Shown here in pieces: positions 6,201 through 38,976 of a stretch of 45,815 nt of DNA. The first letter of the stretch is position 1, and each line of letters opens with the position of its first letter. A program made the position numbers and the translations under genes. The notes under the pieces are model-generated. The model was not told the origin of the DNA and made no database searches. It was given only the letters and a program-made list of their open reading frames with translations. The stretch is from Jimgerdemannia flammicorona (lineage: Eukaryota): assembly GCA_003990765.1 (NCBI GenBank), contig RBNJ01000058.1, positions 1 through 45,815 on the forward strand. The letters run 5' to 3'.

Positions 6201-8288
6201 AATACCCCAGCAAGTTTTCAGCAAATGATGAACAGAGTCTTCAGCAATGAGATTGGAAAATAGCTCTTTGTCTATATTGATAATATAATCATCTTCAGCA
6301 ATACTACATGGGAACATATCAACTACATACAGCTAGCCCTCAAGAAGCTCAAGGAGCATGGTCTCTACATCAAGCCCAAGAAGTATAAGTTTGTAGCTCA
6401 GGAAATCACCTACCTAGGACACCTCATCAACTAGACTGGAATCCACACAGACTCTATGAAGATTGAGACTATTGCAGTCTACCTGAGACCCAGAACAACC
6501 ACAGAAGTCCATGTCTTCCTTGGACTGGCCTCCTACTACAGAAAATTCATCAAAAAATACTCCAATATTGCAGCACCTATCTATGAGCTACTGAAGAAAG
6601 AGACTAAATTCAAATAGATCAAGAAATACCAAGAAATCTTCAATGAACTCAAGACTATGTTGACCTAAGCACCCATTCCTCAGAAGACCAGATTGGAACC
6701 TAGAGTTCATCCTACAGACAGATGCAAGTACTATAGAACTTGGAGCAGTCCTAGCTCAGAAGAAAGATGGACATAAATATGTCATCTCTTATATAAGCTG
6801 AGGTACCTGCAGAGTGGAACAGAACTACAAGTCATGTACTCAAATACTTGGCAGTAGTTTGAGCAGTAGACAAGTTCCACTACTACCTAGCTGAGAAATA
6901 CTTCACTATTCAAACAGACCATTCTGCTCTTGCTTGGCTATTCCACACTCTGAACTCCAAAGAAATATATACTAAATAGATCTATAGGCTATAAGAGTAT
7001 GACTGTACTGTCAAGCACCACTCAGAAAGAACTAATGCCAATGCTGATATACTCTCAAGGATACTCCAAACACCTCCATTAAGACTATTCAATATGAATA
7101 AGAAGTTATACTATTGATTAATCAACTATTTTAGGTAGCAGAAGATGCTCAACCACCTTGAACTCTGGACAATCACCATCATCAACCAGACTTGAAAACA
7201 GTTTAAACTAGACAACACTACACTCAGAAAAGGAGGAAAGCTTGTAATACTCAAATACAAGAAGTATCAAGTAATGATAGAAGTATATGAACAGAGATAC
7301 CTAGGAGGAACCAATATATACAATAAGGCAAGAAGAACTATGTGGTGGCCTAAGATAGAAGAAGATCTGTACCAATTTGTCAAAGAGTGTGATAAGTACC
7401 AAAAACAGAAATAAGATCAGTAAGACCAGATACTCAGGTCATCAAGAATTGAGTCTATCTCCTTCCACCACATTGTAATAGATATCATTAGGCTACTATC
7501 AGTAACACTATCAGGAAACTACTACATTATAGTTATTATAGACCTCTTTACTAAATAGATAGAAGCAGGAGCATTATAAGAAGCCAATGCTCTCTCTATA
7601 GCTGACTTCCTGTACTGAGAAATTATCTGCTACTACAAGACACTAAGGCAAATTACCACAGACCATGATACAGAATTTATCAATGGATTCTATGAGATAA
7701 TATATTAGAAATATAAGATTCAGTATATCAAGACCACTGCATACCACTCTCAAGAAAATAGATAGACAGAGAGAACCAACAAGACCCTCAAGAACATCCT
7801 GGTGAAGATCTCAGATATATGAGAATTGAGATAACTACCTCCCAACTGCCCTCTCTATCCTATGAGATATATGATCATAGAGCACACACTTTACTCCAAG
7901 AGAACTGCTTTTTGAAGAAGAAGATTCCAATGGAACCTTAGCTACAAATCTAGACCTAACTTAGAGATAGATTGACTCAGAAATCCAGAGACTACATCAA
8001 ATCAGGAAGAAGGCTGAATATTATATCATCAAGTCACAAGTACTGATGAGGAAGAATATAGAAAAGAATCACAAGACCCTAAAACCCATCCAAATTGGAG
8101 AAATGGTTCTACTGTATTGAAATATAGTAGAAGCCTCATAATTATAAAAATTGGAGCCTAAATGGGAAGGACCCTTCTATGAGCAAGATATTAAGAGAAC
8201 TATCTTCTGGCTTAGAAAAATCTCAGAGACCATACTGCCTACTATAGTATACAGGAATAGACTCAAGAAGTACCATAAACCTATATAA
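3231..8288 (+). pseudogene. gag-pol: Degenerate gag-pol of family A copy 1 (capsid, protease, Cys/His module, dUTPase, RT, RNase H, integrase)
   Basis: MHPPTFYGY capsid start; IIDT protease; GIIDPDYTGE and RGEQGFGST dUTPase; RLCIDYRKLN, LDLFSGFH and YIDN RT; FILQTDAS RNase H; QEN..ERTN and LEPKWEGP integrase; many transition-derived stops. Confidence 0.9.
5172..5583 (+). pseudogene. dut: dUTPase domain in family A pol
   Basis: ORF 5238-5711 carries RNSL (motif 2), GIIDPDYTGE (motif 3), IGQML (motif 4) and RGEQGFGST (motif 5). Confidence 0.9.
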
Positions 8289-11569: not shown

Positions 11570-11600
11570 AGGATGGGATTGATATATAACACTATTTCTT

Positions 11601-17497: not shown

Positions 17498-17986
17498 TAT
17501 AACATAGTAGATGTATAACTATATAAGTATATCAGATTTCTATATCTTGAAAACTTAATCTTCTTTGACTCTGCAGAGTCCTTGAGATGTAGAGATAAGT
17601 GAGTTTGAAGTATATCTACCCATAGACTTATTAGTTCCTTTACTTTTTCTTTACTTTGAACTATTTCAATCTGAGATTTATTTACTCTAGATACTAATAT
17701 ATTTAGATACTAGTATATTTATAAGTTTACTAGCTATAAGATGGCTAAGTTATAACTATATTTTCTATAAGTTATTTTTTATAAGTATAGATCCTCTATA
17801 TCTATAAAATCTCTATAATCATAAAGATTTTATATCTGTAGAATTTCTATATTTATAAAGTTTCTATATTTGTGAAAATATGGCTGCTCTTTATAAGACT
17901 ATACTATATTTGGGAATTAGGTTCAGATACTGTAATCAAATGTCTATTCTTCTGATTCATGTTCCTAATTCAGATCAACTATCATA
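17498..17986 (-). repeat. 3' LTR of family B copy 17498-30932
   Basis: Direct repeat of 30469-30932. Confidence 0.9.
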
Positions 17987-18261
17987 ATTTCCTCCTAAAT
18001 AGATGATTTATCCCTAAAACATTCTATTCACTTGAACTTCTAAGTCTCTACAAGCTGTATCTCCTTATACTGTATAATCTGTATCATCATATTCTTCTAA
18101 TAATATCTTCTGACTTATATAAAGTCTCCTGGAACTACTTTCTGAAAATGAGCTAGAGCTGGCTCATCCTTCTTAAATAACTTATATACTTATTTTACAA
18201 TAGTAATCTGAGTATAAGAGAGCTGGTACTCTCTGATCCAATCTTCTTTTCCCATCTCTAG

Positions 18262-18719
18262 TGTGATGGTACAGTCAAATTTGGAAGAAGAAAATAGGGA
18301 ATAGACACTTGATCGCACCCATTCCCAAAGTAGTATAGCCTTATAGTTAGCAGTCCTCGATTTTGACATTGTCTAAATTCTTAGACATTATCCAAATCGA
18401 ATACCCCAATTTAGTATAGCATTTAGATATTGTCCAAATGTTTCGATAAAGTCCAAATGACTCATTTATTACTTAGTCACCCTCTCATAGCTAGCAAACT
18501 TGTATAAATAACCCAGTATCTTCAAGTGAATAAACCTCAGATCAAAATAGTTCAAAGTAAAGAGATAGCAAAGAAACTAGTAAGCCTGTGGGTAGATATA
18601 CTTCAAACTCACCCACCCTCCCCTACAACTTCAAGAGACTCTGCGAGAGTCAGAACAGTCAAGTTTTCAAGATACAGAAATCTGACATACTTTCAAGAGT
18701 AAGCATCTGCTACATTACA
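18262..18719 (+). repeat. 5' LTR family B (458 bp)
   Basis: TGTGATGG..ATTACA; TATAAATA at 18503 and AATAAA at 18529; matches 24500-24957. Confidence 0.95.
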
Positions 18720-18839
18720 ACTTGGTGCCCATTGGCTGGTGATTCAAGACAAATCCCTCACTTTCAAGCTGAACAATGAACAACTACCACTATCCAAACA
18801 ACCATACAAACTGAGCCCCAATACCCAGACAAGATAGAT

Positions 18840-21800
18840 ATAAGACTGCCAGTATTCCATGGATATACCTCAGATAAATCAATCATCACCTTCATTGATG
18901 ATTTCGAGCAGTATACTGCTGTAAGGACTCTGACAGCAGCACAGCAAGTAGCCCTCATGCCCTTCAGTCTATGAGGCCCTGCTAGAGCAGCATTCACAGC
19001 TGCAACCCATGCAGGAAATGATGCAGATGCCATACTGACAGCACAGAAGACCTGGCTCCAAAATACATATTACACAGATGAGATCAAGCAAGCCCTAAAG
19101 GATTAGCTCAATACAATATGCCAAGGAATGAGTGAGGATCCAAACACATTCTATACCAGAATTCGATATCAGATAATCCTTGCAGATTATGCTGCTGCTA
19201 TCCGAGATCAAGTAGCTGAAACAACCTTCATAAAAGGAGTCCATCCAGAAATAGCCATGGCCATCCGCTCATCACCAGTGATTCTAGATCTGCCACAGAA
19301 GGTCACCTATGCTCAGCGATACTGGATAGCCAGACACCCATAAGACCATACAATGGAGAGAGTTACAGGAGTCAGAATTGAGGCACCCAAGGCAACCAGT
19401 GTGATCCCCACCACAATGATCAATTAAAACACACCTCAGCCAAAAGCTACAGAGCAGCAAAAGAACAGTGACCCTATAGAGGAACTCACCAAAAGGTTTG
19501 CTGAAATGACTGCCCACCTGGGAGATGTGGTAAAGGAAATCTGAGGAAGAGATCGCCACCCTGTTCAGAAGTTCGCCACCACCTCAGACAAGAAGAAAGG
19601 TACCTGCTACAGCTGCAGAGAAGAAGGCCACTACTCCTATGAATGTATGAGTGAAACTAAATGCAAGGCTCAACCAAGCAATGCCACACGAAACAAGGAG
19701 CAGGCCAATACAATCACCTTTGAAGAAATCAGAGAATCCGATGAAGAGAAATGGGAGGCCTATCCTGCTCAGACCACCAAGAAGGATGCTCGCAAAGAAC
19801 CCTACAAGAGACTGCCAGGAAGACCCAAGAAGAACCCAGTGGAAAAGCAGATGGAAACTGACACAGAAAGCCAAGCTGAAGAGATGGACCAAGATATCGA
19901 GCTGAAGCAAGCAGTTCAAGATATCATCCGAGGAACCACTCCAGCCAGTGAAGGAGAAAAAGAAAAGAAGCTTTGCAAGACCAAGACCTTCAAGTATGAT
20001 ATCTTCAAGGATCTCAGTCAATAAAAGGTCAATGCAACCTTTGGTCAGCTTGCAGAAATCCCAACATTCAGATAGCAAATGAGGTTTGGACTTGCCAAAA
20101 CAACCAAGGAACAAGGATGGAAGATAACTGAGGCCAATAATATTCAAGAGGACTCAGGAGAAGAAAGTGAGGACAATTGCAAAACCTCTGCTTACACAAC
20201 ATACCAAATCGAAGATAGAATCTTTGAAGCCATCATTGATACGGGAGCAGGAGGATGTCTCCTTAGTAAAAAGGCAGCAGACCACCTAGGTTGGGATGTA
20301 GAAGAAGCAACTAAGCTAGTATTCATCACAGCTGATGGCACAAGAGCTACACCTCTGGGAAAGATCTGAGATGTTCTCATCAAGATCGGAGGAGCAACAA
20401 TCCCAGTAGATGTAATCATAACCAATGCTACCAACTATGACATCCTCATCAGCAATCAATGGCTTCACAAAGCCAAGGCGGTAATCGATCTCAATGCTCA
20501 GAAGATGCAGATCACCTACTGGGGACAGAAGATACAAATTCCCATCAATGTCAACAAAGGAGTCCTGCCTGATATGGAGGAAGAAGAGAGTGAGCAAGAG
20601 GAAGCTTATATGGTGACTATTCCAAAGAAGAAGAAAGTCAGATGGATGAGTGAAGAAGAATGGTGCAAGAAGATCGCAGAAAGTTATGCCCCACAAGGAG
20701 TCTGTCCCCATGGAATCAAGATGTACTGTATGGAGCATGTCAATGATTGCTACCAGTGTACCATCAGAACCAAGAAGATCTACCAGGAAAGAAGGCAGAA
20801 AGCTCTCAAAAAACAGATCAGAGAAGAAGAGAAGGAGGAAGATGATGAACCACCAGCCCTCCTGAAGGACAGTGATGATGAAGAAGAAATCAAGGTCAAG
20901 ATTCGAAAGATCCACTCTGATGCAGTCTTGCCAGAATACAAGTCAGAAAATGCAGCCAGAATGGACATTGCTACAGTAGAAGAAACTGTACTGGAACCCC
21001 AGACAACCACCCTACTCACAACTGGACTGGAGATGACCATCCCAAAGAATCATGTCGGGATTCTCAAGACAAGAAGCAGCCTGGCTAGAAGTGAAATCAC
21101 AATTGAAGGAGGAGTCATTGATTCAAACTATACTGGAGAAATTCTACTCATTGCTAGGAACCACAATCCTACAATTCCATTCCCAGTCAAGAAGAAGGAC
21201 CAATTGGCACAGATGTTGATCTTCTCAATCATACAGCCAAGGATCATAGAAGTCAAGAATCTGGAGGAAATGAAAAGAGGAAAGAAAGGATTCAGATCCA
21301 CAGGAAGAGGAGTATTCGCCAGCACCAAGATCACCGTACTTGAGCATAAGAAGGAGGAAAACACAAGCAAGCACAGTTACACCATTGGAGATGAATTCCC
21401 ACTCAAGGAGGAACTCAAGAAAATACTTCACAAATTCAAGGATGTCCTTGTCACGGATTTCAAGGATATCAAGGGAAAGACCCCACACTACTATCATGAG
21501 GTAGATACCGGAGACACTGAACCAATTTATCAGAAGGCAAGACCTGTCCTGCCAGCCTACCGAGAATGGCTCAGAGAAGAAATCAAGCAGATGGAAGAAG
21601 CCGGCATCATCAAAGAAGTCAGTAGCCCCTGGTCTTTACCAGTTGTACTAGCTCTGAAAAAAGGAAGCAAACCTGGAGAATTTGCCCCAAGGCTCTGTGT
21701 CGACTACAGAAAGCTCAATGCAGTTACCAAGAAGAATCGCCAACCACTGCTGCTCATCAGTGACATCCTTATAATACTGGGAGATGAAGCAGAGTACTAC

Positions 21801-22826
21801 AGCATCTTGGACTTATACTCAGAATTTCATCAAATTGGACTCACAGAGATGGCAAGTGAAAATTCAGCCTTCATCACCCCAGATGGATCCTACATCTACC
21901 TATGAATGCCATTCGGAATGTGCAATGCACCAGCAAGCTTTCAGTGAATGATGAACAAAATCTTCCACCATGACATGGGAAGATGGATGATGGTCTATGT
22001 CGACAATATAATCATCTATAGCAAGACACCTGAGGAACATCTGCAGTACATACAGCAGATAATAGAGAGACTAAGACAATATGGCCTTTATATCAAACCC
22101 AAGAAGTGTAAGTTTGCAGAAATCAAGATCTCCTATCTTGGCCATATTATCAATCGAGATGGAACACACATAGACCCCCTCAAAATACAAGCAGTAGCAG
22201 CATACCCAAGGCCCACTACTGTCACAGAAGCCCAAGCCTTCATGGGACTTGCCTTCTACTATCGCAGATTCATTAGAGGATTCTCCAACATCACAGGTCC
22301 AATCTATGAACTCAACAAGAAGGATACCAAGTTCCAGTGAACTAGCAGACAACAAAAAGCATTTGACAAACTCAAGACCAGACTAACTCAGGCACCCATC
22401 CTCAGACAACCCAATTGGACCCAAGAATTTATCCTTCAGATGGATGCAAGTGCACAGAGACTAGAAGCAGTCCTAGCTCAAAAAGAAGACAAAAAAGAGT
22501 ATGTCATTGCATATCTTAGCCGTGGAACCCAAGGGGCTGAAAAAGAATACAAGTTCTACAAGTTGGAATGCCTTGCAGTCATCTGGGCTGTGGAAAAGTT
22601 CCACTACTATCTGGCCAGAAGACACTTCACCATCCAGATGGACCACTCAGCTCTCACCTGGCTACTGACAACTGGACAACCCAAGGGAATCTATGCCAGA
22701 TAGATAATGAAGTTACAAGCCTATAATGTAACCATCGTACACTGCCCTGGAAGAACAAATTCCAATGCAGATGCTCTCTCACGGATACCTCGAACTACCT
22801 TCAACCAACAAATCAATCATGAATAA
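18840..22826 (+). pseudogene. gag-pol: gag-pol frame: capsid, CCHC knuckle, protease, Cys/His module, dUTPase, RT, RNase H
   Basis: ORFs 19128, 19647, 20079, 20505, 21948 and 22440 share one frame. Motifs: CYSCREEGHYSYEC, AIIDTGAG, RLCVDYRKLN, YVDN, FILQMDAS, DHSAL, NADALSR. Confidence 0.93.
20895..21305 (+). pseudogene. dut: Trimeric dUTPase domain between protease and RT
   Basis: AARMD (motif 1), KTRSSL (motif 2), GGVIDSNYTGE (motif 3), LAQML (motif 4), RGKKGFRSTG (motif 5). Confidence 0.93.
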
Positions 22827-24011
22827 GGAGCTCTACTATGGAATTATCACATACCTGGGACAGCGAAAGATGCCCCAACATCTGGAAGAATGGACACAAA
22901 CAATTATCAACAGGACATGGAAATAATTCGAAACTGATGGAGAAATACTGAAGAAGGGAAAACTACTGGTTATACCAGAACACAAGAAGGAGCAAGCGAC
23001 GAAATCAGTATATGAACTTGGCCATCTAGGAGGAATGAATACATATGACAAGGCAAGAAGAACAATATGGTGGCCAGAGATGGAGGAAGATATCAGACAA
23101 TTTGTCAAGACATGCGACAAATGCCAGAAACAGAAACAAGACCAATGGAATCAAGCCCCAGGATCAGCACACATAGAACCAGTACCATTTGCCCATATAG
23201 CAATGGATGTAATCAGCCCTCTACCCTTGACCCTGACTGGTAACCGATACATCATTGTCATTGTAGACCTTTTACGAAGTGGATTGAAGCAGGACCCCTC
23301 AAGGAAGCCAATGCACAGTCAATTGCCGATTTCTTCCACAAGGAAATCATCTGCCGGTTCAAGACCCCAACACAAGTAACTACAGATAGAGGAACAGAAT
23401 TCGTGAACCAGCTCTTTGAGGTTCTCTACAAGAAGTACAAGATCCAGCACATTCGAACCACAGCCTATCACCCCCAAGAAAATGGACAAGTAGAAAGGAC
23501 TAACAAAATCCTCAAGAATGTTATCACCAAGATCTGTGATAACTACGAGAACTGGGATCACTATCTGCCAATAGCATTATCTGCTCTCCAGGATATCCAA
23601 TCACAAAGCACCCACTTTACCCCTTGAGAAATGCTGTTTGGAGAAGAATGTTCTCAAGGAATCCTATCATCCAATAGAGATGCTGTATGGAAACATATGG
23701 ACATGGAAATACAGAGACTATACTAAATCAGAAAGAAGGCTGAGGATTACATAACCAAGGTGCAGACACTACAATGGAGGAATGCAGAAAAGACCCACAA
23801 GCCCTTGGAGATTATCAAGATAGGAGACAAAGTTCTAGTGTATCAGAATATGATAGAAGCTTTATGGTCATGAAAACTGGAGCCCAAGTGGGAAGGACCT
23901 TACCTTGTACAAGATATAAAAGGGACCACCTTTTGGCTACGAAAACTCTCAGGCACAATAATCCCCACCACCATTTACCGAAACTGACTCAAGAAATATC
24001 ATGGCCAGTAA
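22819..24011 (+). pseudogene. Integrase ORF (HHCC, DDE, GPY/F; no chromodomain), starting in the +1 frame
   Basis: MNKELYYG..GHLGG..CDKC; IAMDVI, TDRGTEF, QENGQVERTN, LEPKWEGPY; one private frameshift near 23272. Confidence 0.9.
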
Positions 24012-24462
24012 CAAAAGTACTGTGATGGCACTCAAGATCACTAGTGCTGCCCAAAGAGCCATCGAAAGACAATGGCACACCACCGAGCCTCTGACCATAG
24101 AGGCATACTATGAGGATATTCAGAGTATTGTGTAGACTCATCTCTCTCAGATCTCACACTTTAGAGCCTATCAGTATCAGGCAGAATTCCAAGAATACTT
24201 CAAGCTTGGGCAGGTGCTCAATCAGGATCCAGAAAAGACCAAGAAGGACTGGATTGCCGAGTGTCAACTCTCTCACTCACAGATCACTATTGCCAAAAGG
24301 ATCCACAAGTTATTCCAAGAAGATGAACCAGCAATAGACTATCTGAGAGAAGTAACCCCCACTGACTTTGAGAAAGTGAAGAGACACTATTGGGAAACAG
24401 TCATACAGCAAATTGCACAGTACAAGACCATACAGACAGTTGAAGCCTGGGAGTTTGAATAG
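24001..24462 (+). pseudogene. Accessory ORF3, 153 aa, unknown function (one internal TAG)
   Basis: MASNKSTVMALKITS..EYFKLGQ..AKRIHKLF..KRHYWE..QIAQYK..VEAWEFE; an equal-length homologous ORF lies at 33581-33120. Confidence 0.82.
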
Positions 24463-24499
24463 ATGCCCCAGGGATGAGACCATCTATTCAGGAGGAAGT

Positions 24500-24957
24500 T
24501 GTAACAGTACAGCCAAATTTGGAAGAAGGAAATAGGGAATAGACACTTGATTGCACCCATTCCCAAAGTAGTATAGCCTTATAGTTAGTAGTCCTTGATT
24601 TCGACATTGTCTAAATTCTTAGACATTATCCAAATTGAACACTCCGATTTAGTATAGCATTTAGACATTGTCCAAATGTTTCGACAAAGTCCAAATGACT
24701 CATTTATTACTTAGCCACTCTCTCATAGCTAGCAAACTTGTATAAATAACCCAGTATCTTCGAGTGAATAAACCTCAGATCGAAATAGTTCAAAGCAAAG
24801 AGATAGCAAAGGAACTAGTAAGCCTGCAGGCAAATACACTTCGAACTCACCCACCCTCCTCTACAACTTCAAGAGACTCTGTGAGAGTCAGAACAGTTAA
24901 GTTTTCAAGATACAGAAATCCAACGTACTTTCAAGAGTAAGCATCCACTACATTACA
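24500..24957 (+). repeat. 3' LTR family B (458 bp)
   Basis: TGTAACAG..ATTACA followed by the CTAG TSD. Confidence 0.95.
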
Positions 24958-25183
24958 CTAGCTATAAATTAAGTAGCTGTTCTAACTTGAAGTATTCTTG
25001 AAGCTTAGTCCAATTTTGGTAGGTCTTAAAGTGTGAAATTCATAACAGTTATATCTGTACTATACTTTGGATACTATTGAAGGATTTCTCTATTATGGGT
25101 AGTTTGATAGTACACCATTGTCTTTCTATGACTCATTATATAGTACTAGTGATCTTAAGAACTGTGGCCATACTTTGTTGACT

Positions 25184-28100
25184 AGTAATGATACTTCTTA
25201 AGTTGATTTTGGTAAATGGTAGTAAGGATAATTGTACCTGAGAGTTTTTGTAACCAAAAGGTGATTCCTTTTATATCTTGAATAAAGTAAGATCCTTTCT
25301 ACTTAGACTCTAGTTTTTGTGACTATGAAGCTTCTATATATTCTAATATATTAGGACTTTGTCTCCTATCTTAACAATCTCCAAAGGCTTATGAGTCTTT
25401 TTTGTATTATTCTGCTATAGTGTCAATACTTTGGTTATATAATCCTCAACCTTCTTTCTGATTTGGTATAGTCTCCATATCTCTGTATCCATATATTTTT
25501 ATATAGTATCTCTATTAGATAATAAGATTTCTTGAGAACTTTTTTTTCCAAACAGCATCTCTTAAGAGGTAAAATGAGTACTTTGTGATTGAATATCCTG
25601 AAGAGTAGATAATGCTATTGGCAGATAGTAATTTCAGTTTTATAGTTATAATAGATCTTAGTGATGACATTCTTGAGAGTCTTGTTTGTTCTTTCTACTT
25701 GTCTATTTTCCTGAAAGTAATAGACTGTAGTTTAAATATGCTGGATCTTGTACTTCTTATAGAGAACCTTAAAGAACTAGTTCACAAATTCTATTCCTCT
25801 GTCTATAGTTACTTACAATGAGATCTTGAATTAGCAGATAATTTCTTTGTAGAAAAAATCAGTAATTGACTATATATTGGCTTTCTTGAGGGATCCTGTC
25901 TCTATCTATTTTGTAAAAAGGTCTATAATGATAATGATGTATCAGTTACTAGTCAAAGTCAAGGGTAGAGGGCCAATTATATCTATTGCAATGTGTGCAA
26001 AGAGTACTGATTCTATGTATACTAATCCTGGGGTCTGATTTCATTGATCTTATTTCTGTTTCTGGAATTTATTACAGGTTATGACAAATTGTCTGATATC
26101 TTCCTCCATTTTTGGCCACTACATTGTTTTTCTTGCTTTATTATATATATTTGTTCCTCCTAGATGACTAAGTTTATATACTGATTTCATTGTTTGCTCC
26201 TTCTTAATTTAGATATAACTAGTAGCTTTCCTTTCTTTAGTATTTCTATATCAGTCTCAAATTGTTTCCATATTCTATTGATAATCATTTGTATTCATTC
26301 TTCCAGATATTGGAGCATCTTTTACTGTCTCAGGTAGATAATAATTTTATAGTAGAGTTTCTTATTCATGGTTGATTTACTAGTTGAGAGTCCTTCAGAG
26401 TATCTATGAGAGGGCATCTATATTGATATTAGTTCTTCCAAGATAGTACATGATGGTTATGTCATAAGCTTGCAACTTTATAATCTATCTGATGTAGATT
26501 TCTTTGGGTTGTCTAGTGGTCAATAGTTAAATAAGAGTGGAGTAGTCTGTCTGGATAATAAAGTATCTTTCTGTGAGATAGTAGTATAACTTCTCTATAG
26601 CTCAGATAACTGCAAGACATTCTAACTTATAGGATTCATACTCTTTTTCAGCTTCTTGAGTTTCTTAGCTGAGATATATAATAATATATTCTACTTTGTC
26701 TTTCTTTTAAACCAGGATGACTTCTAGTTCTTGGATACTTATATCTGTCTGCAGGATGAATTCTTGAGTCCTATTGGGTCTTCTAAGAATGAGTGCTTGA
26801 GTCAGCCTGATCTTGAGCTTATCAAATGCTTTCTGTTATCTGCTGGTCTATTGAAACTTAATATCCTTTTTGTTGTATTTGTAGATTGGGCTTACAATAT
26901 TAGAGAATCCTTTGATAAACCTATAGTAATATAAGGCAAGTTCCATGAAGACTTGAGCTTCAGTGACAGTAGTGGGCCTTGGATCTGCTACTGCTTAAAT
27001 CTTAATTAGATCTATATATATTCTATCTTAGTTAATAATGTGACTAAGGTAGGAGATTTTGATTTCTATAAACTTGCACTTCTTGAGCTTGATGTAAAGA
27101 CCATGTCTTCTTAGCTTCTCCATCATCTGCTGGATATATTGCAGATATTCTTTGGCTGTCCTACTATAGATAATAATATCATTCACATAAACTATCATTC
27201 ATCTTCTCATATCATAGTGAAAGATTTTGTTTATCATTTGCTAAAAGCTTACTAGTATATTATATATTCCAAATAATATTCATAGATAGATATAGGTTCT
27301 GTCTGGAATAATGAAGGCTGATTTTTTTACTTACTGCTTTAGTAAAGTCAATTTAGTAGAATCCTGAGTATAAATCCAAGATACTATAGTACTGTACTTC
27401 ATCTCCCTAAGTTATAAAGATACCCCTGATAAGGGGCAGTAGTTGGCAATTCTTTTTTGTCATCAGGTTGAGTTTCCTGTAATCAGTACAGAGCCTTGAG
27501 ACAAATTTTTCTAATTTATTTCCTTTTTTTGAGACCAATACAACTGGTGAAACCCAAGGACTACTAGCTTCTTTGATGATACTAGCTTCTTCTATCTACT
27601 TGATTTCTTCTCTGAGCCATTTGCAATAAGCTGATAGAATTGACCTTGCTTTTTGATAGATTGGTTTAGTATCTTCTATATCTATATAATAATAGTAGTG
27701 TGGAATCTTTTTCTTGATATTCTTGAAGTTTGTAGCTAAGATATTCTTAAATTTATAGAATATCTTCTTGAGTTTCTTCTTGAGTGAGAATTTATTTCTG
27801 ATAGTGTAGCTATGCTTATTTGTAGTTTTCTCCTTCTTATGATCAAGTTCTATAATCTTAATACTAGTGAATACTTCTCTTCTAGTAGATCTGAATTTTT
27901 TTTTTTTTCTTTCTATTTCCTTCAACTTCTTGACTTTTATGATCTTTGACTGAAGAACTGGAAAGATCAATATCTATATTAATTAGTTCTTCTTGATTGA
28001 AAATGGGATTGTGAGATTATAGTTTCTAACAATAAGTAGTATTTCTCTAATATAGTCTGAATCAATAACTTCTCCTTCAATAGTAATCTCACTCTTGGCC

Positions 28101-30348
28101 AGGCTGCTTCTTGTCTTGAGAATCCTGACATAGTTCTTTGAAATAATCATTTTCAGATTAGTTGCAAGCAGAGTAGTTGTCTGAAACTCCAGTATAGTTT
28201 CTTCTACTGTGGTAATATCTATTTCAGCTATATTCTCTAACTTATATTCTGGTAGAACTATATTAGGGTGGATTTTCCAAATCTTAACCTTGATTTCTTC
28301 TTCATTATCACTATTCTCTAAGAGGGCTAGTGGTTCATCATCCTCTTCCTTCTTCTTTTCTTATCTTGCCTGTTTCTTGAGAGCCTTCTGTCTTCTTTTA
28401 TAGTAAATTTTCTTGATTCTACTAATACACTGATAGCAATCATCAATATGTTTCATATAGTATATCTTGATTCCATGAGAGCAGACTCCTTGTAGTATAT
28501 ATTCTTTTATAATCCTTTTGCACTATTCTTCTTCACTAATCCATCTGACTTTCTTCTTCTTTTTCTAAGTAGTCACTATATAGGCTTCTTCTTGCTCACT
28601 TTCTTCTTTCTTCATTTTGAATAGTTCTTCTTTGTTGATATTGATGGGAATTTACATCTTCTAACCTTGGTAGATGATCTGTATCTTCTGGGTATTGAGG
28701 TTGATTATTGCTCTGGCTTTATAAAGCCACTAGTTGCTGATGAGAATATTATAGTTGATAGCATTAGTTATGATTATATCTACTGAGATGATTGCTTCTC
28801 CAAACTTGATAGAAACATTCCAGATCTTTCCTAGAGATATGGCTCTTATGTCATCTGATGTAATAAATACCAATTTGATTACTTCTTCAACCTCCCAACC
28901 TAAGTGGTCTACTGCTTTCTTGCTAAGGAGACATCCTCCTACTCTAGTATCAATGATGGCCTCAAAGATTCTATCTTCAATTTGACAAGTTGTATAGACA
29001 GAGATCTTGTAATTGTCTTCACTTTTTTCTCCAGAGTCTACTTGAATATTATTGGCCTCAGTTATCTTCTAATCTTATTCCTTGGTTGTCTCAGTAAGTC
29101 TATATCTCATTTACTGTCTGAATGTGAGTATTTCTGCCAGCTGGCTAAAAGTTATATTAACCTTTTGTTGACTGAGGTCCTTAAAGATATTATACTTAAA
29201 AGTCTTGATTTTACAAAACTTCTTCTCCTTTTCTCCTTCACTAGCTAGGGTAGTTTCTAAAATGATATCTTGGACAGTCTGTTCCAGCTCTATATCTTGA
29301 TCTATTTCTTCACCTTGGCTTTCTATAGCAGTTTTCATCTATTTTTCCATAGAGTTCTTTTTGAGTCTTCCTAGTAATCTCTTATAGGATTGCTTACAGA
29401 CATTCTTATAGACAGTCTCAGTAAAGTAGGTTTCTCATTCTTCTTCATCTGATTCTCCAATCTTCTCAAAGGTAATGGTATTGGCCTGTTCCTTGTTTTG
29501 AGTAGTACATATACTTGGCTGGGCCTTGTATTTGATTTCACTTATATATTTATATAAGTAGTGGCCTTCTTCTCTACAGGTATAGCAGATATCTCTCTTC
29601 TTATCTAAGATAGTAGTAAACTTCTGAACTTGGGGATAGTCTCTTCCTCTAATTTTCTTTATCATATCTCTTTGATAAGTAGTTATTTCAGCAAACTTCT
29701 TAGCAAGTTCCTCTGAGTTACTATTTCTCTACTATTCAGTAGTTCTTGGCTGAGGTATGTTTTAATTAATCACTATGGTAGGGATCATGCTAGTTGTCTT
29801 AGATACTTTGATTCTGACTCTAGTGATTCTTTCTATTATATAGTCTTGTAAATGTCTAGCTATTCAGTATCACTGGGTATAGGTAATCTTTTATACTAGA
29901 TTCAGAACTACTGGTGATGAGTAGATGATCAGAGCTATCTCTGGGTAGACTTCTTTTATAAAGATTACTTCTGCTACTTAATTCTGGATAGCAGTAGTAT
30001 AATCTGCAAGAATTATCTGATATCAGATTCTGGTATAGGATGTGTTTGGATCCTTACTCATTCTTTGACATATTGTATTAAGCTAATCCTTCAGAGCTTA
30101 CTTGATCTTATCTATATAGTAGATGATTTAGAGCCAGGTCTTCTGTACTGCTAGCATGGCATTGTCATTATTTCTCACATAAGTTATACTATGAATACTG
30201 CTCTTGCTAGTCCTTAGAGACTAAAGGACATGAGAGCTATCTGCTATATTATTGTCAGAGTTCTTATAGCAGTATACTACTTGAAATTATCAATAAAGAT
30301 AATGATCAATTCATCTAAAGTATATCTGTAAAATACTGGTAATCTCAT
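25184..30348 (-). pseudogene. gag-pol: Heavily mutated gag-pol and integrase of family B copy 17498-30932
   Basis: Reverse complement is colinear with 18840-24011 (for example ORFs 27596-27970, 29111-29338 and 29435-29665). Confidence 0.88.
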
Positions 30349-30468
30349 ATCTATTTTATCTAAATGTCTTAATTCAATTTGTATAGTTGTTTAGATGGTA
30401 GCAGTTGTTTGTTATTCAGCTTGAAAGTGAGGAATTTGTCTTGAATTACTAGCTAATGGACACCAAGT

Positions 30469-30932
30469 TATAATATAGTAGATATATAACTGTGTAAGTA
30501 TATCAGATTTCTATATCTTGAAAACTTGATCTTCTTTAACTCTGCAGAGTCCTCAGGATATAGAGATGGGTGAGTTCAAAGTATATCTACCTGTAGACTT
30601 ACTAGTTTCTTTACTTTGAACTATTTCAATCTGAGGTTTATTTACTCTAGATACTGGGATATTTATATAAGTTTGCTAACTGTAAGATAGCTAAGTTATA
30701 ACTATATTTCTTATGAGTTATTTTCTACAAGTATAGATCCTCTATATCTCTCAAATCTCTATAATTATAAAGATTCTATATCTGTAGAATTTCTATATTT
30801 GTAAAGTTTCTATATTTGTGAAAATATGACTACTCTTTATAAGACTATACTATATTTGAGAATTGGGTTTAGGTACTATAATCAAATGTCTATTCTTCTG
30901 ATTTATATTCCTAACTCAGATCAACTGTTACA
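30469..30932 (-). repeat. 5' LTR of family B copy 17498-30932
   Basis: Preceded on the plus strand by the PBS complement; ends ..GTTACA followed by ATAT. Confidence 0.9.
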
Positions 30933-31696
30933 ATATATATCTTTAGACTAAAATATATATACCTTCAGACTAGAATATATATATATACCAAATCAAAGAC
31001 TAAATGAATACTGAATTATATATTAGTATCTTTAGTAATAAATTGCTTCAATTACTCAATTATTATAATTAATTATATAGATAATATATTTCAATATGAT
31101 ATTAACCCAAAATATGTTTAAAAAGATATATAAATGAGATTTACATATTATATAGCCTGTACAATATATTTTTTGATATATAAAATAAAGATTTAATTAA
31201 CTATTTAGACTAGATCAAATCAGTCAGCAATAGTTCAATTTATATGCAATAGTCCAATCTTTATACAAGAGGTCAATCTTTATACTTAATTGCAAATTTA
31301 TATTATATATATCTTAATATAGTAAGACAGCAAAAGTAGTTTTTTTTTACTTAATATATTATAAACAATATACTACTAAATTTTAGAGTTCTGGTCATCT
31401 AATTTTATTTCTTATATTATATATTGGAGTCTAAACTATTATTGTTTCATCAGAAAATATATTATATATGCTAGTCTAATATATAGATCTCATTTATATA
31501 TCATTTTAAATATATTTGGAGTTATTATTCTATTAGAATATATTTTATATAATTAAGTTTATAATAATAGATCATTTGAAGCAATTTATTATTAAAGATA
31601 CTAATATATATATAATTTGGTATTCATTCAGCCTTTGATTTGGCATATATATCCTAGTCTGAAGATATATATTCTAATCTAAAGATATATATCTAG

Positions 31697-32162: not shown

Positions 32163-33119
32163 CTAGCAAAAAAACCACTTTTGCTATCTCACTATATTAT
32201 AGTTATAAATATTAATAGAAAGATTTTTTTATTACTTGAAATTGAGAGCAAAACACTATAGAGTAGTAAAGAATATCTGAAACAATATTATAGTGAAGTT
32301 TGATAATTATAGCTTAACTCAATAGTATATTATAAATTTAAATAGATTTAGATACTAGTGAGGATCAAAATGATAATAATGATAATATAACTTAAAATAG
32401 TTATATTAACATCCATAATTATCTAAATAAAATAAAAAATTTAAATTTAATAGAATTTATATTTGAGTTATAATATAATTATATATTAAAAATAATAAAA
32501 CATTATTCCAGTTTTAGCTATTATTTATGACTAGTTAAGATAAGATACTTAGTGTTGAGAAAAGATAAAAATATTCTAGTAAAATCTTAATACTGTAACA
32601 TAGCAGACACTTATTCTTGAAAGTACATCGGATTTCTATATCTTGAGAACTTGACTGTTCTGACTCTTGCAGAGTTCTTTGAGTTGTAGGTGAGGGTGGG
32701 TGAGTTCGAAGTATATCTGCCCACAGACTTATCAGTTCCTTTGCTATCTCTTTGCTTTGAACTATTTCAATCTGAGGCTTTATTCACTCTAAGATACTAG
32801 GTTATTTATACAAGTTTGCTAGCTATGAGATGGCTAAGTTATAACTATATTTTCTATAAGTCATTTCTTTTACAAGTGTTAAATCCTTGACATCTATTAA
32901 ATCTTTAACAATCATTGAAGAGTTTAATATCTGTGAATAGTTTAACATTCATGAAAACTTTAATATTTGTGAAATGACTACTATCTGGGCTATACTATAT
33001 TTGGGAATCAGATTCAGGTACCATGATCAAATGTCTTATTCCCCTGATTTATGTTACTAATTTAGATCAACTGTCACAACTTCCTCTTGAATAGGTGATT
33101 CATCTCTGAAACATCCTAT

Positions 33120-33581
33120 TTACTCAAACTCCCATGCCTCTACAATTTGTATCTCCTTGTACTGTGCAATTTGTGTCATTATGTTCTCCCAATAATGTCT
33201 TTTGATATATCCAAAATCTCCTGGGACTACTCCTTAAAAGTGGGCTAAGGCTGATTCATCATCTTTGAACAACTTGTTAATTCATTTGGCAATTATGATC
33301 TGAGTATAGGAAAGCTGGCACTCTCTAATCTAGTCTTCTTTTCCCATCTCTGGCTGTGAATTCAGTAGTTGTCCCAGTTTGAAGTATTCCTGAAACTCAG
33401 TTCAGTTCTGGTAGATCTTGAAGTGTGAAATTTGTGACAGGTGTGTTTGGACTATGCTCTGGATACTGTCAAAGGATTCCTCTATAGTAGGTAGTTTAGT
33501 TGTACACCATTGTCTTTTTATGGCTCGCTGTGTGGCACTAGTGATCTTGAGAGCTAAGGCAGTACCCCTTTGGTTAGTCAT
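33120..33581 (-). pseudogene. Accessory ORF3 homologue (153 codons)
   Basis: MTNQRGTALALKITS..EYFKLGQLL..KRHYWE..QIAQYKEIQIVEAWEFE, with transition-derived stops. Confidence 0.8.
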
Positions 33582-36500
33582 GATACCTCTTGAGTCAGTT
33601 TTGGTGAATGGTAGTGGAGATGATTGTGCCTGAGAGTTTTCATAGCCAAAAGGTGGTCCCTTTTATATCTTATACAAGGTAAGGTCCTTCCCACTTAGGC
33701 TTCAGTTTTCATGACCATGAAGCTTCTACCATATTCTGATATACTAGGACTTTGTCTCCTATCTTGATAATCTCCAAGGGTTTGTGGGTCTTTTCTGCAT
33801 TCTTCTATTGTAGTATCTGTACCTTGGTTATGTAATCTTCAGTCTTCTTCCTAATTTGGTGTAGTCTCTGTATTTCTCCATCCACATGTTTCCATATAGT
33901 ATCTCTATTAGATAATAGGGTTTCTCAAGAACTTTCTTCTCCAAACAGCATCTCTCGAGGAGTAAAGTGGGTACTTTGTAATCTGATATCACAGAGAGCA
34001 GATAATACTATTAGCAGATAGTGATCCCAGTTTTCATAGTTATTACAGATCTTGGTGATAACATTCTTGAGGGTCTTGTTGGTCCTTTCTGCTTATCTGT
34101 TTTCTTGAAAGTAATAGGCTGTGGTCCAAATGTGCTAGATCTTGTACTTTTTATAGAGAACCTCAAAGAACTAGTTCATGAATTCTGTTCCTCTATTTGT
34201 AGTTACTTGCATTGGGGTCTTGAACCAGCAGATGATTTCTTTGTAGAAGAAATTGGCAATTGATGTGCATTAGCTTTCTTGAGAAGTCCTGCTTCTATCC
34301 ATTTTGTAAAAAGATCTATGATGACAATGATATATCAGTTGTGTCCATTCTTCCAGATGTTGGGGCATCTTTCGCTATTCCAGGTATATGATGATTCCAT
34401 AGTAAAGCTCCTTATTCATAATTGATTTATTGGTTGGAGGTATTTTGGAGTGTCTATAAGAGAGCATCTGTATTGGAATTTGTTCTTCCAGGGCAGTGCA
34501 CAATGGTTACATCATAGGCTTATAGCTTCATTATCCTTCTGGCATAGATTCCTTTGAGTTGTCCAGTTGTCAGTAACCAGATAAGAGCTGAGTGGTCTGT
34601 CTGGATAGTGAAGTGTCTTCTGGCCAGGTAGTAGTGGAACTCCAGATAACTGCGAGACATTTCAACTTGTAGGATTCATATTCTTTTTCAGCTCCTCGAG
34701 TTCCATGGCTAAGGTATACAATAATATACTCTTTTTTGTCTTCTTTTTGAGCTAGGACTACTCCTAGTCCCTGTGCACTTGCATCTGTCTGCAGAATGAA
34801 TTCTTGAGTCCAATTGGGTCATCTGAGGATGAGTGCCTGGGTCAGTCTGATCTTGAGTTCATCAAATGCTTTTTGTTGTCTGCTGGTCTACTGGAACTTG
34901 GTGTCCTTCTTATTGAGTTTGTAGATTAGACCTGCAATGTTGGAGAATCCTCTAATAAATCTGCAATAGTAGGAGGTAAGTCCTATGAAGGCTTGGGCTT
35001 CTGTAATAGTGGTGGGCCTTGGATATGCCACTACTGCTTATATCTTGAGGGAGTCCATGTGTGTTCCATCTCGATTGATAACATGGCCAAGGTAGGATCT
35101 TGATTTCTGCAAACTTGCACTTCTTGAGTTTGATGTAAAGGCCATATTGTCTTAGTCTCTCCATTATCTGCCATATATGCTACAGATATTCCTCAGGTGT
35201 CTTGCTGTAGATGATTACATCATCAACATAAACCATCATCCATCTTCCCATATCATAGTGGAAGATTTTGTTCATCATTCATTGGAAGCTTACTGGTGTA
35301 TTGCACATCCTGAATGGCATTTGCAGGTAGATATAGGTTCCATCTGGGGTGATGAAGGCTGACTTTTCACTTGCCATTTCTGTGAGTCCAATTTGGTGGA
35401 ATCCTGAGTATAAGTCCAAGGTGCTGTAGTACTGTACTTCATCTCCTAGTATTATAAAGATGTCGCTGATGAGGGGCAGTGGTTGGCAATCCTTCTTGGT
35501 AACTATATTGAGCTTTCTGTAGTCAACACAGAGTATTGGGGCGAATTCTCCAGACTTGCTTTCTTTTTTTGGAGCTAGTACAACTGGTGAAGACCAGGGG
35601 CTGCTGGCTTCTTTGATAATACCAGCTTCTTCCATCTGCTTGATTTCTTCTCTGAGCCATTCTTGGTAGGCTGGCAGGACAGGTCTTGCCTTCTGGTAAA
35701 TTGGTTCAGTGTCTCCAGTATCTACCTCATGATAGTAGTGTAGAGTCTTTTCTTTGATATTCTTGAAGTCTGTGGCAAGAACATCCTTGAATTCATAGAG
35801 TATTTTCTTGAGTTCCTCCTTGAGTGGGAATTCATTTCTGATGGTGTAGCTATGCTTGTTTGTGGTTTCCTCCTTCTTATGCTCCAGTTCAGTAATCTTG
35901 ATACTGGCAAATACTCCTCTTTCTGTAGATCCAAATCCTTTCTTTCCTCTTTTTGTTTCCTCCAAATTCTTGACCTCTATGATCCTTGGTTGTAGGATCA
36001 GAAAGATCAGCATCTGTACCAATCGGTCCTTCTTCTTGACTGGGAATGGAATTGTAGAATTGTGATTTCTGGCAATGAGCAGGATTTCTCCAGTATAGTC
36101 AGAATTGATGACTCCTCCTTCAATAGTAATTTTGCTTCTGGCCAGGCTGCTTCTTGTCTTGAAGATCCCAACATGATCCTTTGGGATAGTCATCTTCAGT
36201 CTAGTTATAAGTAGGGTAGTTGTCTGGGGTTCCAGTATGGCTTCTTCTACTGTGGCGATGTCCATTATAGCTGTATTTTCTGACTTATATTCTGGCAGAA
36301 CTGCATCAGGGTGAGTTCTTCGAATCTTGACCTTGATTTCTTCATTGTCACTGTCCTCTAGGAGGGCTGGTGGTTCATCATCTTCCTCTTTCTTCTCTTC
36401 TCTGACCTGTTTTTTGAGAGCTCTCTGTCTTCTTTCCTGGTGGATTTTTTTGATTCTGATGGTACACTGGTAGCAATCATTGACATACTCCATACAGTAT

Positions 36501-38371
36501 ATCTTGATCCTGTGAGGACAAACTCCTTGTAGTGCATAGCCTTCTGCAATCTTCTTGCACCATTCTTCTTCACTCATCCATCCTACTTTCTTCTTTGGAA
36601 TAGTTACCATATAAGCTTCCTCTTGCTTGCTCTCTTCTTCCTCTATATCAGGCAAGACTTCTTTGTTGACATTGATGGGAATTTGTATCTTCTGTCCCTG
36701 ATAGGTGATTTGCATCTTCTGAGCATTGAGGTTGATTACTGCCCTAGCTTTGTGAAGCCATTGATTGCTGATAAGGATGTCATAGTTGGTGGCATTGGTT
36801 ATGATTATATCTACTAGAATGGTTGCTCCTCCAATCTTGATGGGGATATCTTGAATCTTTCCCAGAGGGGCGGCTCTTGTGCCATCTGCTGTGACAAATA
36901 CCAACTTGGTTACTTCTTCAACCTCTCAACCTGCTGCCTTCTTGCTGAGAAGACATCCTCCTGCTTCAGTATCAATGATGGCTTCAAAGATTCTATTCTC
37001 GATCTGGCATATTGCATAGGCAGAGGTTTTGCAATTGTCTTCGCTTTCTTCTCCTGAGTTCTCTTAAACATTATTGGCCTCAGTTATCTTCCATCCTTGC
37101 TCCTTGATTGTTTCAACAAGTCCAAACCTCATTTGCTATCTGAATGTTGGGATTTCTGTGAGCTGATCAAAAGTTGTATTGACCTTTTATTGGCTAAGGT
37201 CCTTGAAGATATCATACTTGAAAGTCTTGGTCTTGCAAAGTTTCTTTTCTTTTTCTCCTTCACTGGCTAGAGTGGTTTCTCAGATAATATCTTGAACTGC
37301 TTGCTCCAGCTCCATATCTTGGTCCATCTCTTTGGCTTGGCTTTCTGTGGCAGTTTCCATCTGCTTTTCCACTGGGTTCTTCTTGGGTCTTCTTGGCAGT
37401 CTCTTGTAGGGTTCCTTGCAAACATCCTTCTTAGTGGTCTGGGCAGGATAGGCCTCCCATTCTTCTTCATCAGAATCTCCAATTTCTTTGAAGGTAATTG
37501 TATTGGCCTGCTCCTTGTTTCTAGTAGCATTACTTGGCTGAGCCTTGCACTTGGTTTTGCTCATGCATTTATAGGAGTAGTGGCCTTCTTCTCCACAGGT
37601 GTAGTAGGTACCTTTCTTCTTGTCTGAGATGACAACAAACTTCTGAACAGGGCAGTGGTCTCTTCTTCTGATCTCTTTTACCACATCTTCTAGGTGGGCA
37701 GTCATTTCTGTGAACCTCTTAGTAAGTTCCTTCAAAGGGTCGCTGTTCTTTTGCTCCTCTGTAGCTTTGGGCTGAGGTGTGTTTCAATTGATCATTATGG
37801 TAGAGATCACACTGGTTGTCTTAGGTGCTTCAATTCTGACTCCTGTGACTCTCTCCATTGTATGGTCTTGTGGGTGTCTGGCTATCCAGTATCACTGAGT
37901 ATAGGTGACCTTCTGTGGCATATCCAGAATCACTGGTAATGAGCAGATGGCCATAGCTATCTCTGGGTGGACTTCTTTCATAAAGGTTGCTTTGGCTACT
38001 TAGTCTCGGATAGCATCAGCATAATCTGTGAGGATTATCTGGTATTGGATTCTTGTGTTGAATATGTTTGGATCTTCACTCATTCCTTGGTATGTTGTGT
38101 TGAGCTAGTCCTTTAGAGCTTGCTTGATCTCATCTGTATAGTAGGTAGTTTGAAGCCAGGTCTTCTGTGCTATCAGTGTAGCATTGGCATCATTTCCCAC
38201 ATGGTTTGTAGCTGTGAATGCTACTCTTACAGGGCCTTGTAGGCTAAAGGGCATAAGGACTACTTGCTATGCTGCTGTCAGGGTCCTTACAGTGACATAC
38301 TACTTGAAATCATCAATGAAGGTGATGATTGATTCATCTGAGATATATCCACAGAATACTAGTGGTCTCAT
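33574..38371 (-). pseudogene. gag-pol: gag-pol (with dUTPase) and integrase of copy 32594-38976
   Basis: ORFs 35279-36904 and 37280-37735; RGKKGFGST, LCVDYRKLN, LDLYSGFHQI. Confidence 0.92.
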
Positions 38372-38976
38372 ATCCATCTTGTCTGGGTATTGGGACTCAG
38401 TTTGTATGGTTGTTCAGGTAGTAGCAGTTGTTTGTTGTTCAGCTTGAAAGTGAGGGATTTATCTTGAATCACCAGCTAATGGGCACTAAGTTATAATATA
38501 GTAGATACTTACTCTTGAAAGTATGTTGGATTTCTATATCTTGAGAACTTAACTGTTCTGACTCTTGCAGAGTCCTTTGAGTTGCAGGTGAGAGTGGATG
38601 AGTTCAAAGTGTATCTGCCCACAGGCTTACTAGTTCCTTTGCTATCTCTTTGTTTTGAACTATTTCGATCTGAGGCTTTATTCACTCTAAAATACTAGGT
38701 TATTTATACAAGTTTGCTAGCTATGAGATGGCTAAGTTATAACTATGTTTTCTATGAGTCATTTCTTTCATAAGTATTAAATCCTTAATATCTATTAAAT
38801 CTTTGACAATCATTGAAGAGTTTAATATCTATGAATAGTTTAACATTTATGAAAACTTTAATGTTTGTGAAATGACTGCTATCTGGGCTATACTATATTT
38901 GGGAATCAGATTCAGGTACTATGATCAAATGTCTTATTCTTCTGATTTATATTACTAATTCAGATCAACCATCACA

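Follow-up and report, generated by a model that had tools for sequence, protein, structure and literature searches.

In textbook models of retroviruses and long terminal repeat (LTR) retrotransposons, integrase (IN) enters the particle within Gag-Pol, and the dosage is set at gag/pol by frameshifting, readthrough or degradation. The IN of canonical Ty3/gypsy elements is the C-terminal part of Pol and is released by the protease (PR). Stop/restart translation is described in other systems. In victoriviruses, the stop/restart between the capsid protein (CP) and the RNA-dependent RNA polymerase (RdRp) reportedly takes place at AUGA. Part of one report places the stop/restart between ORF A and ORF B of the hypovirus CHV1 at UAAUG (PMC2699510). 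Passages of a review (PMC10275272) describe reinitiation dependent on termination upstream ribosomal binding sites (TURBS) for calicivirus VP1/VP2 and influenza B M1/BM2, with the stop and start within ~20 nucleotides (nt) of each other, e.g., as UAAUG or AUGA; UAAUG coupling of ORF1 and ORF2 in the non-LTR retrotransposon SART1 (Kojima et al. 2005, as cited there); and reinitiation dependent on the transactivator TAV on the polycistronic pregenomic RNA of cauliflower mosaic virus (CaMV) and other caulimoviruses. Here, we describe the boundary of RNase H (RH) and IN in Ty3/gypsy elements of Jimgerdemannia flammicorona, found in positions 1 to 45,815 of contig RBNJ01000058.1 (assembly GCA_003990765.1; hereafter, the window), where IN has an open reading frame (ORF) and an AUG of its own. 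The two families concerned, A and B, probably belong to a two-gene, probably fungal, Ty3/gypsy lineage. Comparison with related loci makes it very likely that the split goes back to an ancestor, is widespread and has been maintained by selection, and that IN begins at its own AUG.

Self-BLAST and alignment showed the 45,815-nt window to be a nest of decayed LTR retrotransposons. Family B is represented by three copies (B1, B2 and B3), and family A by two (A1 and A2; self-comparison and alignment). In all three B copies, the frame encoding gag, PR, dUTPase, reverse transcriptase (RT) and RH terminates in [C/T]AT GAA TAA, and IN starts at an overlapping ATG one base forward (22819, 26369 and 34419). 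By direct reading of the + strand, the RH frame of B1 ends in ATC AAT CAT GAA TAA (stop at 22824-22826), while the +1 frame reads ATG AAT AAG GAG CTC TAC TAT (ATG at 22819-22821). The features concerned were as follows.

22819..22826, + strand: B1 junction, ATGAATAA, with the IN start codon at 22819-22821, the pol stop TAA at 22824-22826 and IN in the +1 frame
26362..26369, - strand: B2 junction, with the ATG at 26369-26367 and the TAA at 26364-26362
34412..34419, - strand: B3 junction, with the ATG at 34419-34417 and the TAA at 34414-34412
18891..22826, + strand: gag (CCHC)-PR-dUTPase-RT-RH of B1 in one frame (single-frame alignment to the gag-pol of L004, a related metagenome locus; Pfam)
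22819..24002, + strand: IN of B1, comprising the N-terminal region, H2C2 zinc finger, rve core and C-terminal part (alignment to the L004 IN; Pfam)

Three-frame translation of B1 to B3 gave an RH tail ending in ADALSRIPRTTFNQQINHE and a stop, followed one base forward by an IN that begins MNKELYY; the +1 frame of the B copies reads MNKELYYGIITYL. Pfam models for RVP, dUTPase, RVT_1 and RNase H (two models) were matched in the upstream frame, and those for Integrase_H2C2 and rve in the downstream frames. The first-pass annotation of the window had located the stop/ATG overlap at 22819, 26369 and 34419 and had proposed a separate +1 integrase ORF. Both points were confirmed, the coordinates and frames by direct reading, three-frame translation and Pfam, and the separate ORF by the frames, Pfam and the L004 alignment. 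The motif YATGAATAAG was present at 22818 (+), 26361-26370 (-), 34411-34420 (-) and 7093 (+), i.e., four times vs. 0.65 expected; as the matches sit in homologous copies, the count is not an independent test.

The L004 gag-pol (1577 amino acids, aa) aligned to B1 in one frame from ~18891 to the junction, and the in-frame stops at 21903-5, 22338-40 and 22701-3 are confined to B1. Residues 1-160 of the L004 IN aligned to 22819-23268 and residues 162-410 to 23271-24002; according to this alignment, the IN of B1 is, apart from stops, interrupted just once more, by a 1-nt frameshift near 23269. No frameshift or stop lies between gag and PR in the frame of B1, in L004 or in a second related locus, L030, and the sole coding break is that between RH and IN. 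Gag and pol through RH thereby make up a single uninterrupted ORF at 18891-22826 of the window, L004:2-4732 and L030:2-4438.

To place the junction among its relatives, 80 metagenome loci with an RT-RH alignment were examined. The loci were classified by tblastn with the RT-RH and IN pieces of the window and then with the IN ORFs from the loci. IN was encoded apart from pol in 18 loci (split), fused to it in 40 and broken in four; the remainder were too short. The split was called on the reading frame in 16 of the 18 and on stop codons alone in L002 and L006. Relative to pol, the IN frame of the split loci was +1, -1, the same with stops, or spaced. The IN ORFs are open over 417-486 aa in L001, L004, L006, L008, L011, L012, L016, L022, L030 and L044. 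Both ORFs are intact in L030 (1479 and 418 aa), and L004 comprises a CCHC-PR-dUTPase-RT-RH ORF of 1577 aa, then ATGA, then an H2C2 and rve ORF of 418 aa. The Pfam domain order gag (CCHC)-PR-RT-RNase H-IN was found in B1, L004 and L030. The four broken loci (L031, L063, L064 and L079) were first scored as split and were then treated as broken fused elements, three of them lying inside fused clades beside fused near-copies; L079 may be truly split.

Junctions were read at single-base level in 17 split loci; L034, which is a truncated near-copy of L025, was not among them. With family B added, there were 18 junctions of the following types.

ATGA: L004, L025 and L037
TAATG: L008
TGAnnATG: L022
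ATGnnTAA: L001 and family B
ATGn5TAA: L012
Spacer of 43-166 nt: L002, L005, L006, L011, L014, L030, L044, L046 and L048
Spacer of 730 nt: L016

A spacer motif, TAGGTGAAAGC..AAGTGT..GCAA.G.GAC.AACAGCC, was common to L006:3290-3335 and L030:4455-4495, and in part to L016:7360-7400. The same small AGTG-loop hairpin could form in L030 (GCGAA/TTCGC) and L006 (GC.ATA/TATGC), with changes on both sides, although few sequences are available. In one split subclade, an extension of 100-590 aa without a Pfam match was present after RNase H (L006:2420-3271, L030:3497-4438 and L016:4945-6702; P0026, P0036, P0044 and P0057), and in P0026 and P0057 it was rich in Cys/His motifs and acidic runs.

Among proteins, an integrase domain was absent from all of the best 37 of 120 listed RT-RH homologues, although 10 of these 37 are at least 1000 aa in length; the best identity was 48-49%. 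Fourteen of the 120 were inspected, and 12 of these (ranks 1-57) were IN-less, ending 1-30 aa past ADALSR or carrying an IN-less extension.

The IN start codon was analysed by aligning the IN regions from the RH end onward and scoring the column of the B1 Met. This column was Met in 17 of the 19 split rows vs. 2 of the 41 fused rows, A1 being one of the two. Of the two split rows without Met, one was a truncated fragment and the other an element whose N-terminus is shortened. When the first 149 IN residues of B1 were searched against 1.84 billion representatives, the first six residues were covered by 23 hits, all of 423 aa or less, of which 17 began at their own residue 1-6 and the other six at residue 18-44; among the matches listed, none longer than 500 aa aligned before query residue 18. 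A search with P0271, a protein resembling the IN of family A, returned at least 88 stand-alone integrases with lengths of 390-500 aa and a median of 423 aa, and 84 of the 88 listed carry the motif M[NDEK]xx[LIVMTFYE]xxx[LIVMYF] from residue 1 on; P0350, included in the 84, is by eye a truncated protein. The N-termini of P0271 and P0131 are 18-19 aa longer, apparently where the gene caller takes an out-of-frame ATG within the NADAL motif, the +1 frame being open that far. In the source annotations, stand-alone integrases of this lineage go under the names 'transposase InsO family' or 'IS30 family transposase' (P0276, P0283, P0310, P0322 and others) and are thereby classed with bacterial IS proteins. 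Pairs of IN ORFs showed a nonsynonymous divergence (dN) of 0.23-0.45 and a synonymous divergence (dS) that was saturated or ~2.7, giving dN/dS of 0.17 or less.

The relationship of the split and fused elements was addressed with an unrooted RT-RH tree of 71 rows (quick IQ-TREE, with support from the Shimodaira-Hasegawa approximate likelihood ratio test, SH-aLRT). A1 was entered via its longest single-frame RT segment, and the tree covered rows with an RT-RH match of at least 370 aa, a limit that excluded, among others, L005, L044 and L048, which are split. B1 and A1 were sisters (SH-aLRT 100); next to join were the split loci L004 (87), L022 (96) and L037 (99), in this order. One region of the tree held every split row, family B included; split vs. 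fused required four changes on the 71 rows, and none of 500 label shuffles was equally clustered. The fused exceptions inside this region were A1, L028 and L033 with L036, and L079, scored as broken, also lies there. The simplest reading, which the unrooted tree does not demonstrate, is that the split arose once and was followed by a few secondary fusions.

Family A was informative in this respect, as one of the fused exceptions belongs to it.

7053..7101, + strand: A1 junction, with the same ATGAATAA and the ATG at 7094-7096; a linker shorter by 1 nt places the RH motif in frame with IN

The continuous RH-IN frame of A1 reads ADILSRILQTPPLRLFNMNKKLYY (three-frame translation; linker length by alignment). 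A third frame of A1 retains the RH-like tail TPNTSIKTIQYE, which resembles the IPRTTFNQQINHE of family B and ends at the same TAA. P0271 is an intact family-A-like integrase of 433 aa, 76% identical to A1 without gaps, and has the N-terminus MLTHSQGHPETSPPRLFNMNKELYY. Its first residues match the +1 reading of B1 across the ADALSR codons (MLSH-GY...) as well as the third frame of A1 (MLIYSQGY), and from ETSPP on it matches the RH/IN frame of A1 (QTPPLRLFN). The interval from Ser to Asn is 14 codons (42 nt) in P0271 vs. 41 nt in A1. Because of this difference, and because the RH-like tail persists in the remaining frame, A1 is read as carrying a 1-nt deletion ~35-40 nt upstream of the ATG, and its intact relative P0271 as split in the same +1 way; the ATGAATAA junction would therefore predate the divergence of A and B. 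The first-pass annotation had noted that the Met of A1 is in frame behind a linker 1 nt shorter, which the alignment bears out; as the normal state of the element, this arrangement did not hold, since it reflects a 1-nt deletion relative to P0271. A family-A-like contig end from run X3 was collinear with A1 over the final 30 nt only, short of the deletion.

To look for other copies, contigs from public runs (three of soil metagenomes and one of an organism) were aligned to 20300-24200 at 80% identity or more (1145, 207, 103 and 41 contigs per run). At the three RT-RH stops of B1, contigs of the four runs carry the sense letters C, G and G (21903, 22340 and 22702): T>C at 21903, A>G at 22340 (depth 116.7/116.7 in X1) and A>G at 22702 (depth 100.8/100.8 in X1). 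Among the best-supported rows listed for the four runs, there was no substitution in 22739-23036 and no indel in 22458-23093; one contig covers 22640-22883 with 0 gaps. A T is inserted behind 23269 in part of the contigs.

The dead copies of the window are thus taken, from these comparisons, to preserve an ancestral junction, AUGAAUAA. Gene 1 of the lineage is very likely one long gag-PR-(dUTPase)-RT-RNase H ORF, and gene 2 a separate integrase cistron whose conserved AUG (M-[N/D/E]-x-x-[L/I/V]-Y...) lies at or just past the stop of gene 1. In the mechanism that we propose, ribosomes completing the long ORF on the full-length RNA would stop at the UAA located 5 nt past the AUG, and those incompletely recycled would reinitiate at the IN AUG, yielding a small amount of free integrase. 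Enzyme dosage in this lineage would then be controlled by translation at RH/IN and no longer at gag/pol. Where a spacer of 43-166 nt intervenes, as in the relatives whose spacers are A-rich and poor in AUG, the 40S subunit remaining after termination would scan ahead to the next AUG.

Reinitiation is favoured because of the adjacency of stop and start (ATGA, TAATG and ATGnnTAA) and the scarcity of ATG in the spacers. In 8 of the 18 junctions, the stop lies within -5 to +8 nt of the AUG, with an offset of 5 nt in family B. The stops located after the AUG are always within 8 nt of it (offsets 1, 1, 1, 5 and 8, plus 5 in family B); in a null drawn from the same IN ORFs, the probability of an alternative-frame stop within 8 nt was 0.207 per case, with a median distance of 29 nt. 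From the locus density, 12.5 ATGs would be expected in the 709 nt of spacer, and shuffled sequences gave 7.7; the spacers hold three (P=0.037). They are A/C-rich, G-poor and T-poor, and position -3 of the IN AUG is A or G in 12 of 16 loci. The distance of stop and AUG in family B falls within the 20 nt or less associated with reinitiation after a long ORF, and that in the 10 spaced loci does not. Termination-coupled reinitiation was judged to have an even chance of being the IN route at adjacent-type junctions such as that of family B.

Several observations weigh against this interpretation. Ten of the 18 junctions are spaced (43-166 nt, and in one case 730 nt with 12 ATGs), and the spacers of L006 and L048 contain upstream ATGs. 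For such loci, reinitiation of the TURBS type is, according to part of the review cited above, efficient only within ~30 nt (PMC10275272). No shared RNA structure was found to flank eight junctions that were folded, with z scores of -2.2 to +1.9 in 16 windows of 100 nt on both sides and pseudoknots outside the model. The minimal overlaps could reflect selection against dual coding. Fusions appear to have arisen within the split group, because the fused rows L028, L033 and L036 sit among split ones, and they may be viable. The absence of junction variants in the public runs is limited to the rows listed, and minority variants may exist. Finally, free IN leaves its route to the particle or to the cDNA to be explained.

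A separate IN cistron could also be translated from a messenger of its own, either spliced or an internally promoted subgenomic RNA, or from an internal ribosome entry site (IRES), so that the upstream stop would be irrelevant. Errantiviruses, for instance, produce env from a spliced RNA. A route of this kind would accommodate the spacers of 43-166 nt in 9 of the 18 junctions and that of 730 nt in one, a free relation of the frames (+1, -1 or the same frame with stops), and the fused variants within the split group, including A1, which keeps the Met. It would further fit the resemblance of the A/C-rich, G-poor spacers to unstructured leaders, and the spacer motif of L006 and L030, in which a hairpin could form ahead of the AUG. 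However, it gives no reason for the stop to lie within 8 nt whenever it follows the AUG, nor for the ATGA/TAATG geometry in four lineages, and no splice-site-like pattern was noted by eye in the T-poor spacers. We regard it as possible, though doubtful, that IN is made in this manner.

Programmed +1 frameshifting of the Ty1/Ty3 kind in the 22732-22826 overlap, which would produce a Gag-Pol-IN fusion and make the ATG incidental, had been offered in the first-pass annotation. Ty3 uses +1 frameshifting between gag and pol, as stated in part of one source (PMC5911963), and the IN frame of family B is indeed open for 87 nt upstream of the ATG. In L004, L005, L006, L008, L016, L030 and L044, however, the open stretch of the IN frame ahead of the Met measures only 3-33 nt. 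The sister locus L004, as well as L025 and L037, would need a -1 shift; L008 and L022 have near-zero overlap, ten loci are spaced, and the spacer of L006 has further in-frame stops. No single recoding rule fits, because the relatives differ in shift, overlap and spacer, and no shared slippery heptamer was seen. The distribution of the Met at the IN start (17 of 19 split vs. 2 of 41 fused rows) likewise counts against frameshifting. With IN found in -1, in +1 or behind stop-bearing spacers, and the Met conserved only in split elements, the frameshifting proposal did not hold up; these variable frames and the conserved AUG make it very improbable.

Non-autonomous LTR elements can be mobilised in trans, and the three B copies might have inherited a 1-nt insertion from a defective master, with a functionless junction, as the decay of all window copies and the in-frame reading of A1 would allow; this is scarcely credible given that intact relatives across a deep clade are split, and given the conserved Met, the purifying selection, the +1 split of P0271 beside an A1 that is 1 nt short, and the lack of a junction indel among the contig rows listed from four runs. 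The shared inherited lesion that the first-pass annotation would have read from RH and IN being in frame in most or the youngest copies was likewise not found, as the intact relatives are split.

Taken together, we tentatively propose, at somewhat less than even likelihood, that a large and old fungal-type lineage has abandoned the Pol-IN polyprotein as well as gag/pol recoding. Its gag-PR-RT-RH would be made as a single protein and its integrase, in free form, through termination-coupled reinitiation on the genomic RNA, with the dosage set at the RH/IN stop-start and the integrase joining the particle or the cDNA in trans.

The elements of the window were delimited as follows.

18262..24957, + strand: B1, full-length Ty3/gypsy element, family B copy 1 (self-BLAST and flank reading)
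24958..30935, - strand: B2, family B copy 2, main part; the 3' end resumes at 17490-18257, beyond the B1 insertion
32596..38977, - strand: B3, family B copy 3, full length, with LTRs at 32596-33079 and 38494-38977 (91.9% identity)
~3894-8276, + strand: A1, family A copy 1 (self-comparison and alignment)

The LTRs of B1 lie at ~18262-18719 and 24507-24957 (92.9% identity between 18269-18719 and 24507-24957 by self-BLAST), and flank reading showed TG...CA ends (TGTGA...TTACA). A 4-bp target-site duplication (TSD), CTAG, borders the element at 18258-18261 and 24958-24961. B1 sits inside B2 in the opposite orientation, and the B2 piece at 17490-18257 comprises the 3' LTR and ~270 bp. Because B1 splits B2 and has TG..CA ends and a 4-bp TSD, it represents a genuine later integration event; the +1 junction therefore travelled in a lineage that was still moving. 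The IN of B3 has a 344-bp deletion, A2 is interrupted by the window end, and the nucleotide identity of families A and B is ~67% (self-BLAST).

All copies in the window are decayed by transitions, stops and indels. Transitions make up 78-87% of the differences between copies (alignment), B2 being the family B copy most altered by C>T/G>A transitions. The CpA bias of the transitions is mild (54% vs. 45% background). These data point weakly to repeat-induced point mutation (RIP) as the cause, and the decay is termed 'RIP-like'. AT-rich DNA (18% G+C at 16-18 kb) with A-rich tandem repeats was observed at 16000-18000 and 30900-32600, and solo-LTR-like pieces of family B occur in AT-rich stretches, e.g., at 31697-32160. 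The region 10000-15000 has a G+C content of 41-50% and a very strong GC skew (+0.32 to +0.49), and contains a third element bearing reverse transcriptase (RVT_1 in the ORF 12826-13428).

By their LTRs, TSD, domain order and RT phylogeny, the elements are assigned to Ty3/gypsy. They resemble the canonical Metaviridae Ty3 and Tf1 in having TG..CA LTRs, a short TSD, a CCHC Gag, the order PR-RT-RH-IN and an IN with H2C2 and rve. Unlike canonical Ty3/gypsy elements, they encode gag through RH in one ORF without a gag/pol recoding site. IN as part of a Pol polyprotein was found neither in B1 to B3 nor in the 18 related loci, a difference that concerns gene organisation and not phylogenetic membership; the 40 more distant fused loci from the same search have the canonical organisation. 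Fungal gypsy elements that bear a dUTPase include PosPlaTy3-5 of Postia, elements of Phanerochaete, and Tmt1 of Tuber; in passages of one source (PMC2864245), the dUTPase lies between PR and RT, as in families A and B and in L004, most elements have one fused ORF or gag and pol, and a separate IN ORF is not mentioned. The dUTPase domain was located at 20922-21305 in B1, 5238-5711 in A1, 35279-36925 in B3 and residues 931-1058 of ORF1 in L004. In the full-text literature, which leaves out subscription journals, the Tmt1 paper and supplementary tables, no description was found of gypsy elements forming a lineage in which IN has an ORF of its own or translation is by stop-restart.

The lineage is known from many intact environmental copies, in which integrase is a cistron of its own and gag/pol lacks a recoding site. 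This raises the questions of how free integrase is translated from the far end of a ~5-kb ORF, how it finds the cDNA, and why the split was tolerated for so long and yet reversed several times by 1-nt indels. To transposable element pipelines and gene callers, such elements would look frameshifted or defective, or their integrase would receive the name 'transposase InsO/IS30'; autonomous elements of the lineage are probably under-counted for this reason.

Among the systems with stop/restart translation, those dependent on TURBS are alike in that the stop and the out-of-frame start overlap or nearly do so, and a low, fixed product ratio would be expected here as well. They differ in that folding around eight junctions showed no TURBS-like structure in the elements described here, and the spacers of half of the relatives exceed the tolerated length. 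The fungal viruses likewise show coupled reinitiation at UAAUG or AUGA after a long ORF, comparable to the TAATG of L008 and the ATGA of L004, L025 and L037; they are RNA viruses, however, and the window junction is AUGnnUAA, with the stop 5 nt past the A of the AUG. The caulimoviruses are reverse-transcribing relatives of Ty3/gypsy with closely spaced ORFs and reinitiation, but they require a virus-encoded transactivator and have no integrase, and no TAV-like gene was seen here. SART1 is also a retrotransposon in which a stop/start overlap serves to make the downstream enzyme from a bicistronic RNA; it differs in being a non-LTR element, in having the whole RT/endonuclease as the downstream ORF, and in needing a downstream structure, which was not seen here by folding. 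The junction in the three dead copies very probably marks, in preserved form, the point at which the two genes of a widespread bicistronic gypsy lineage meet. If the proposed mechanism is true, the lineage would provide the first demonstrated case of stop-restart translation in an LTR retrotransposon, as well as the first in which integrase is delivered outside Gag-Pol.

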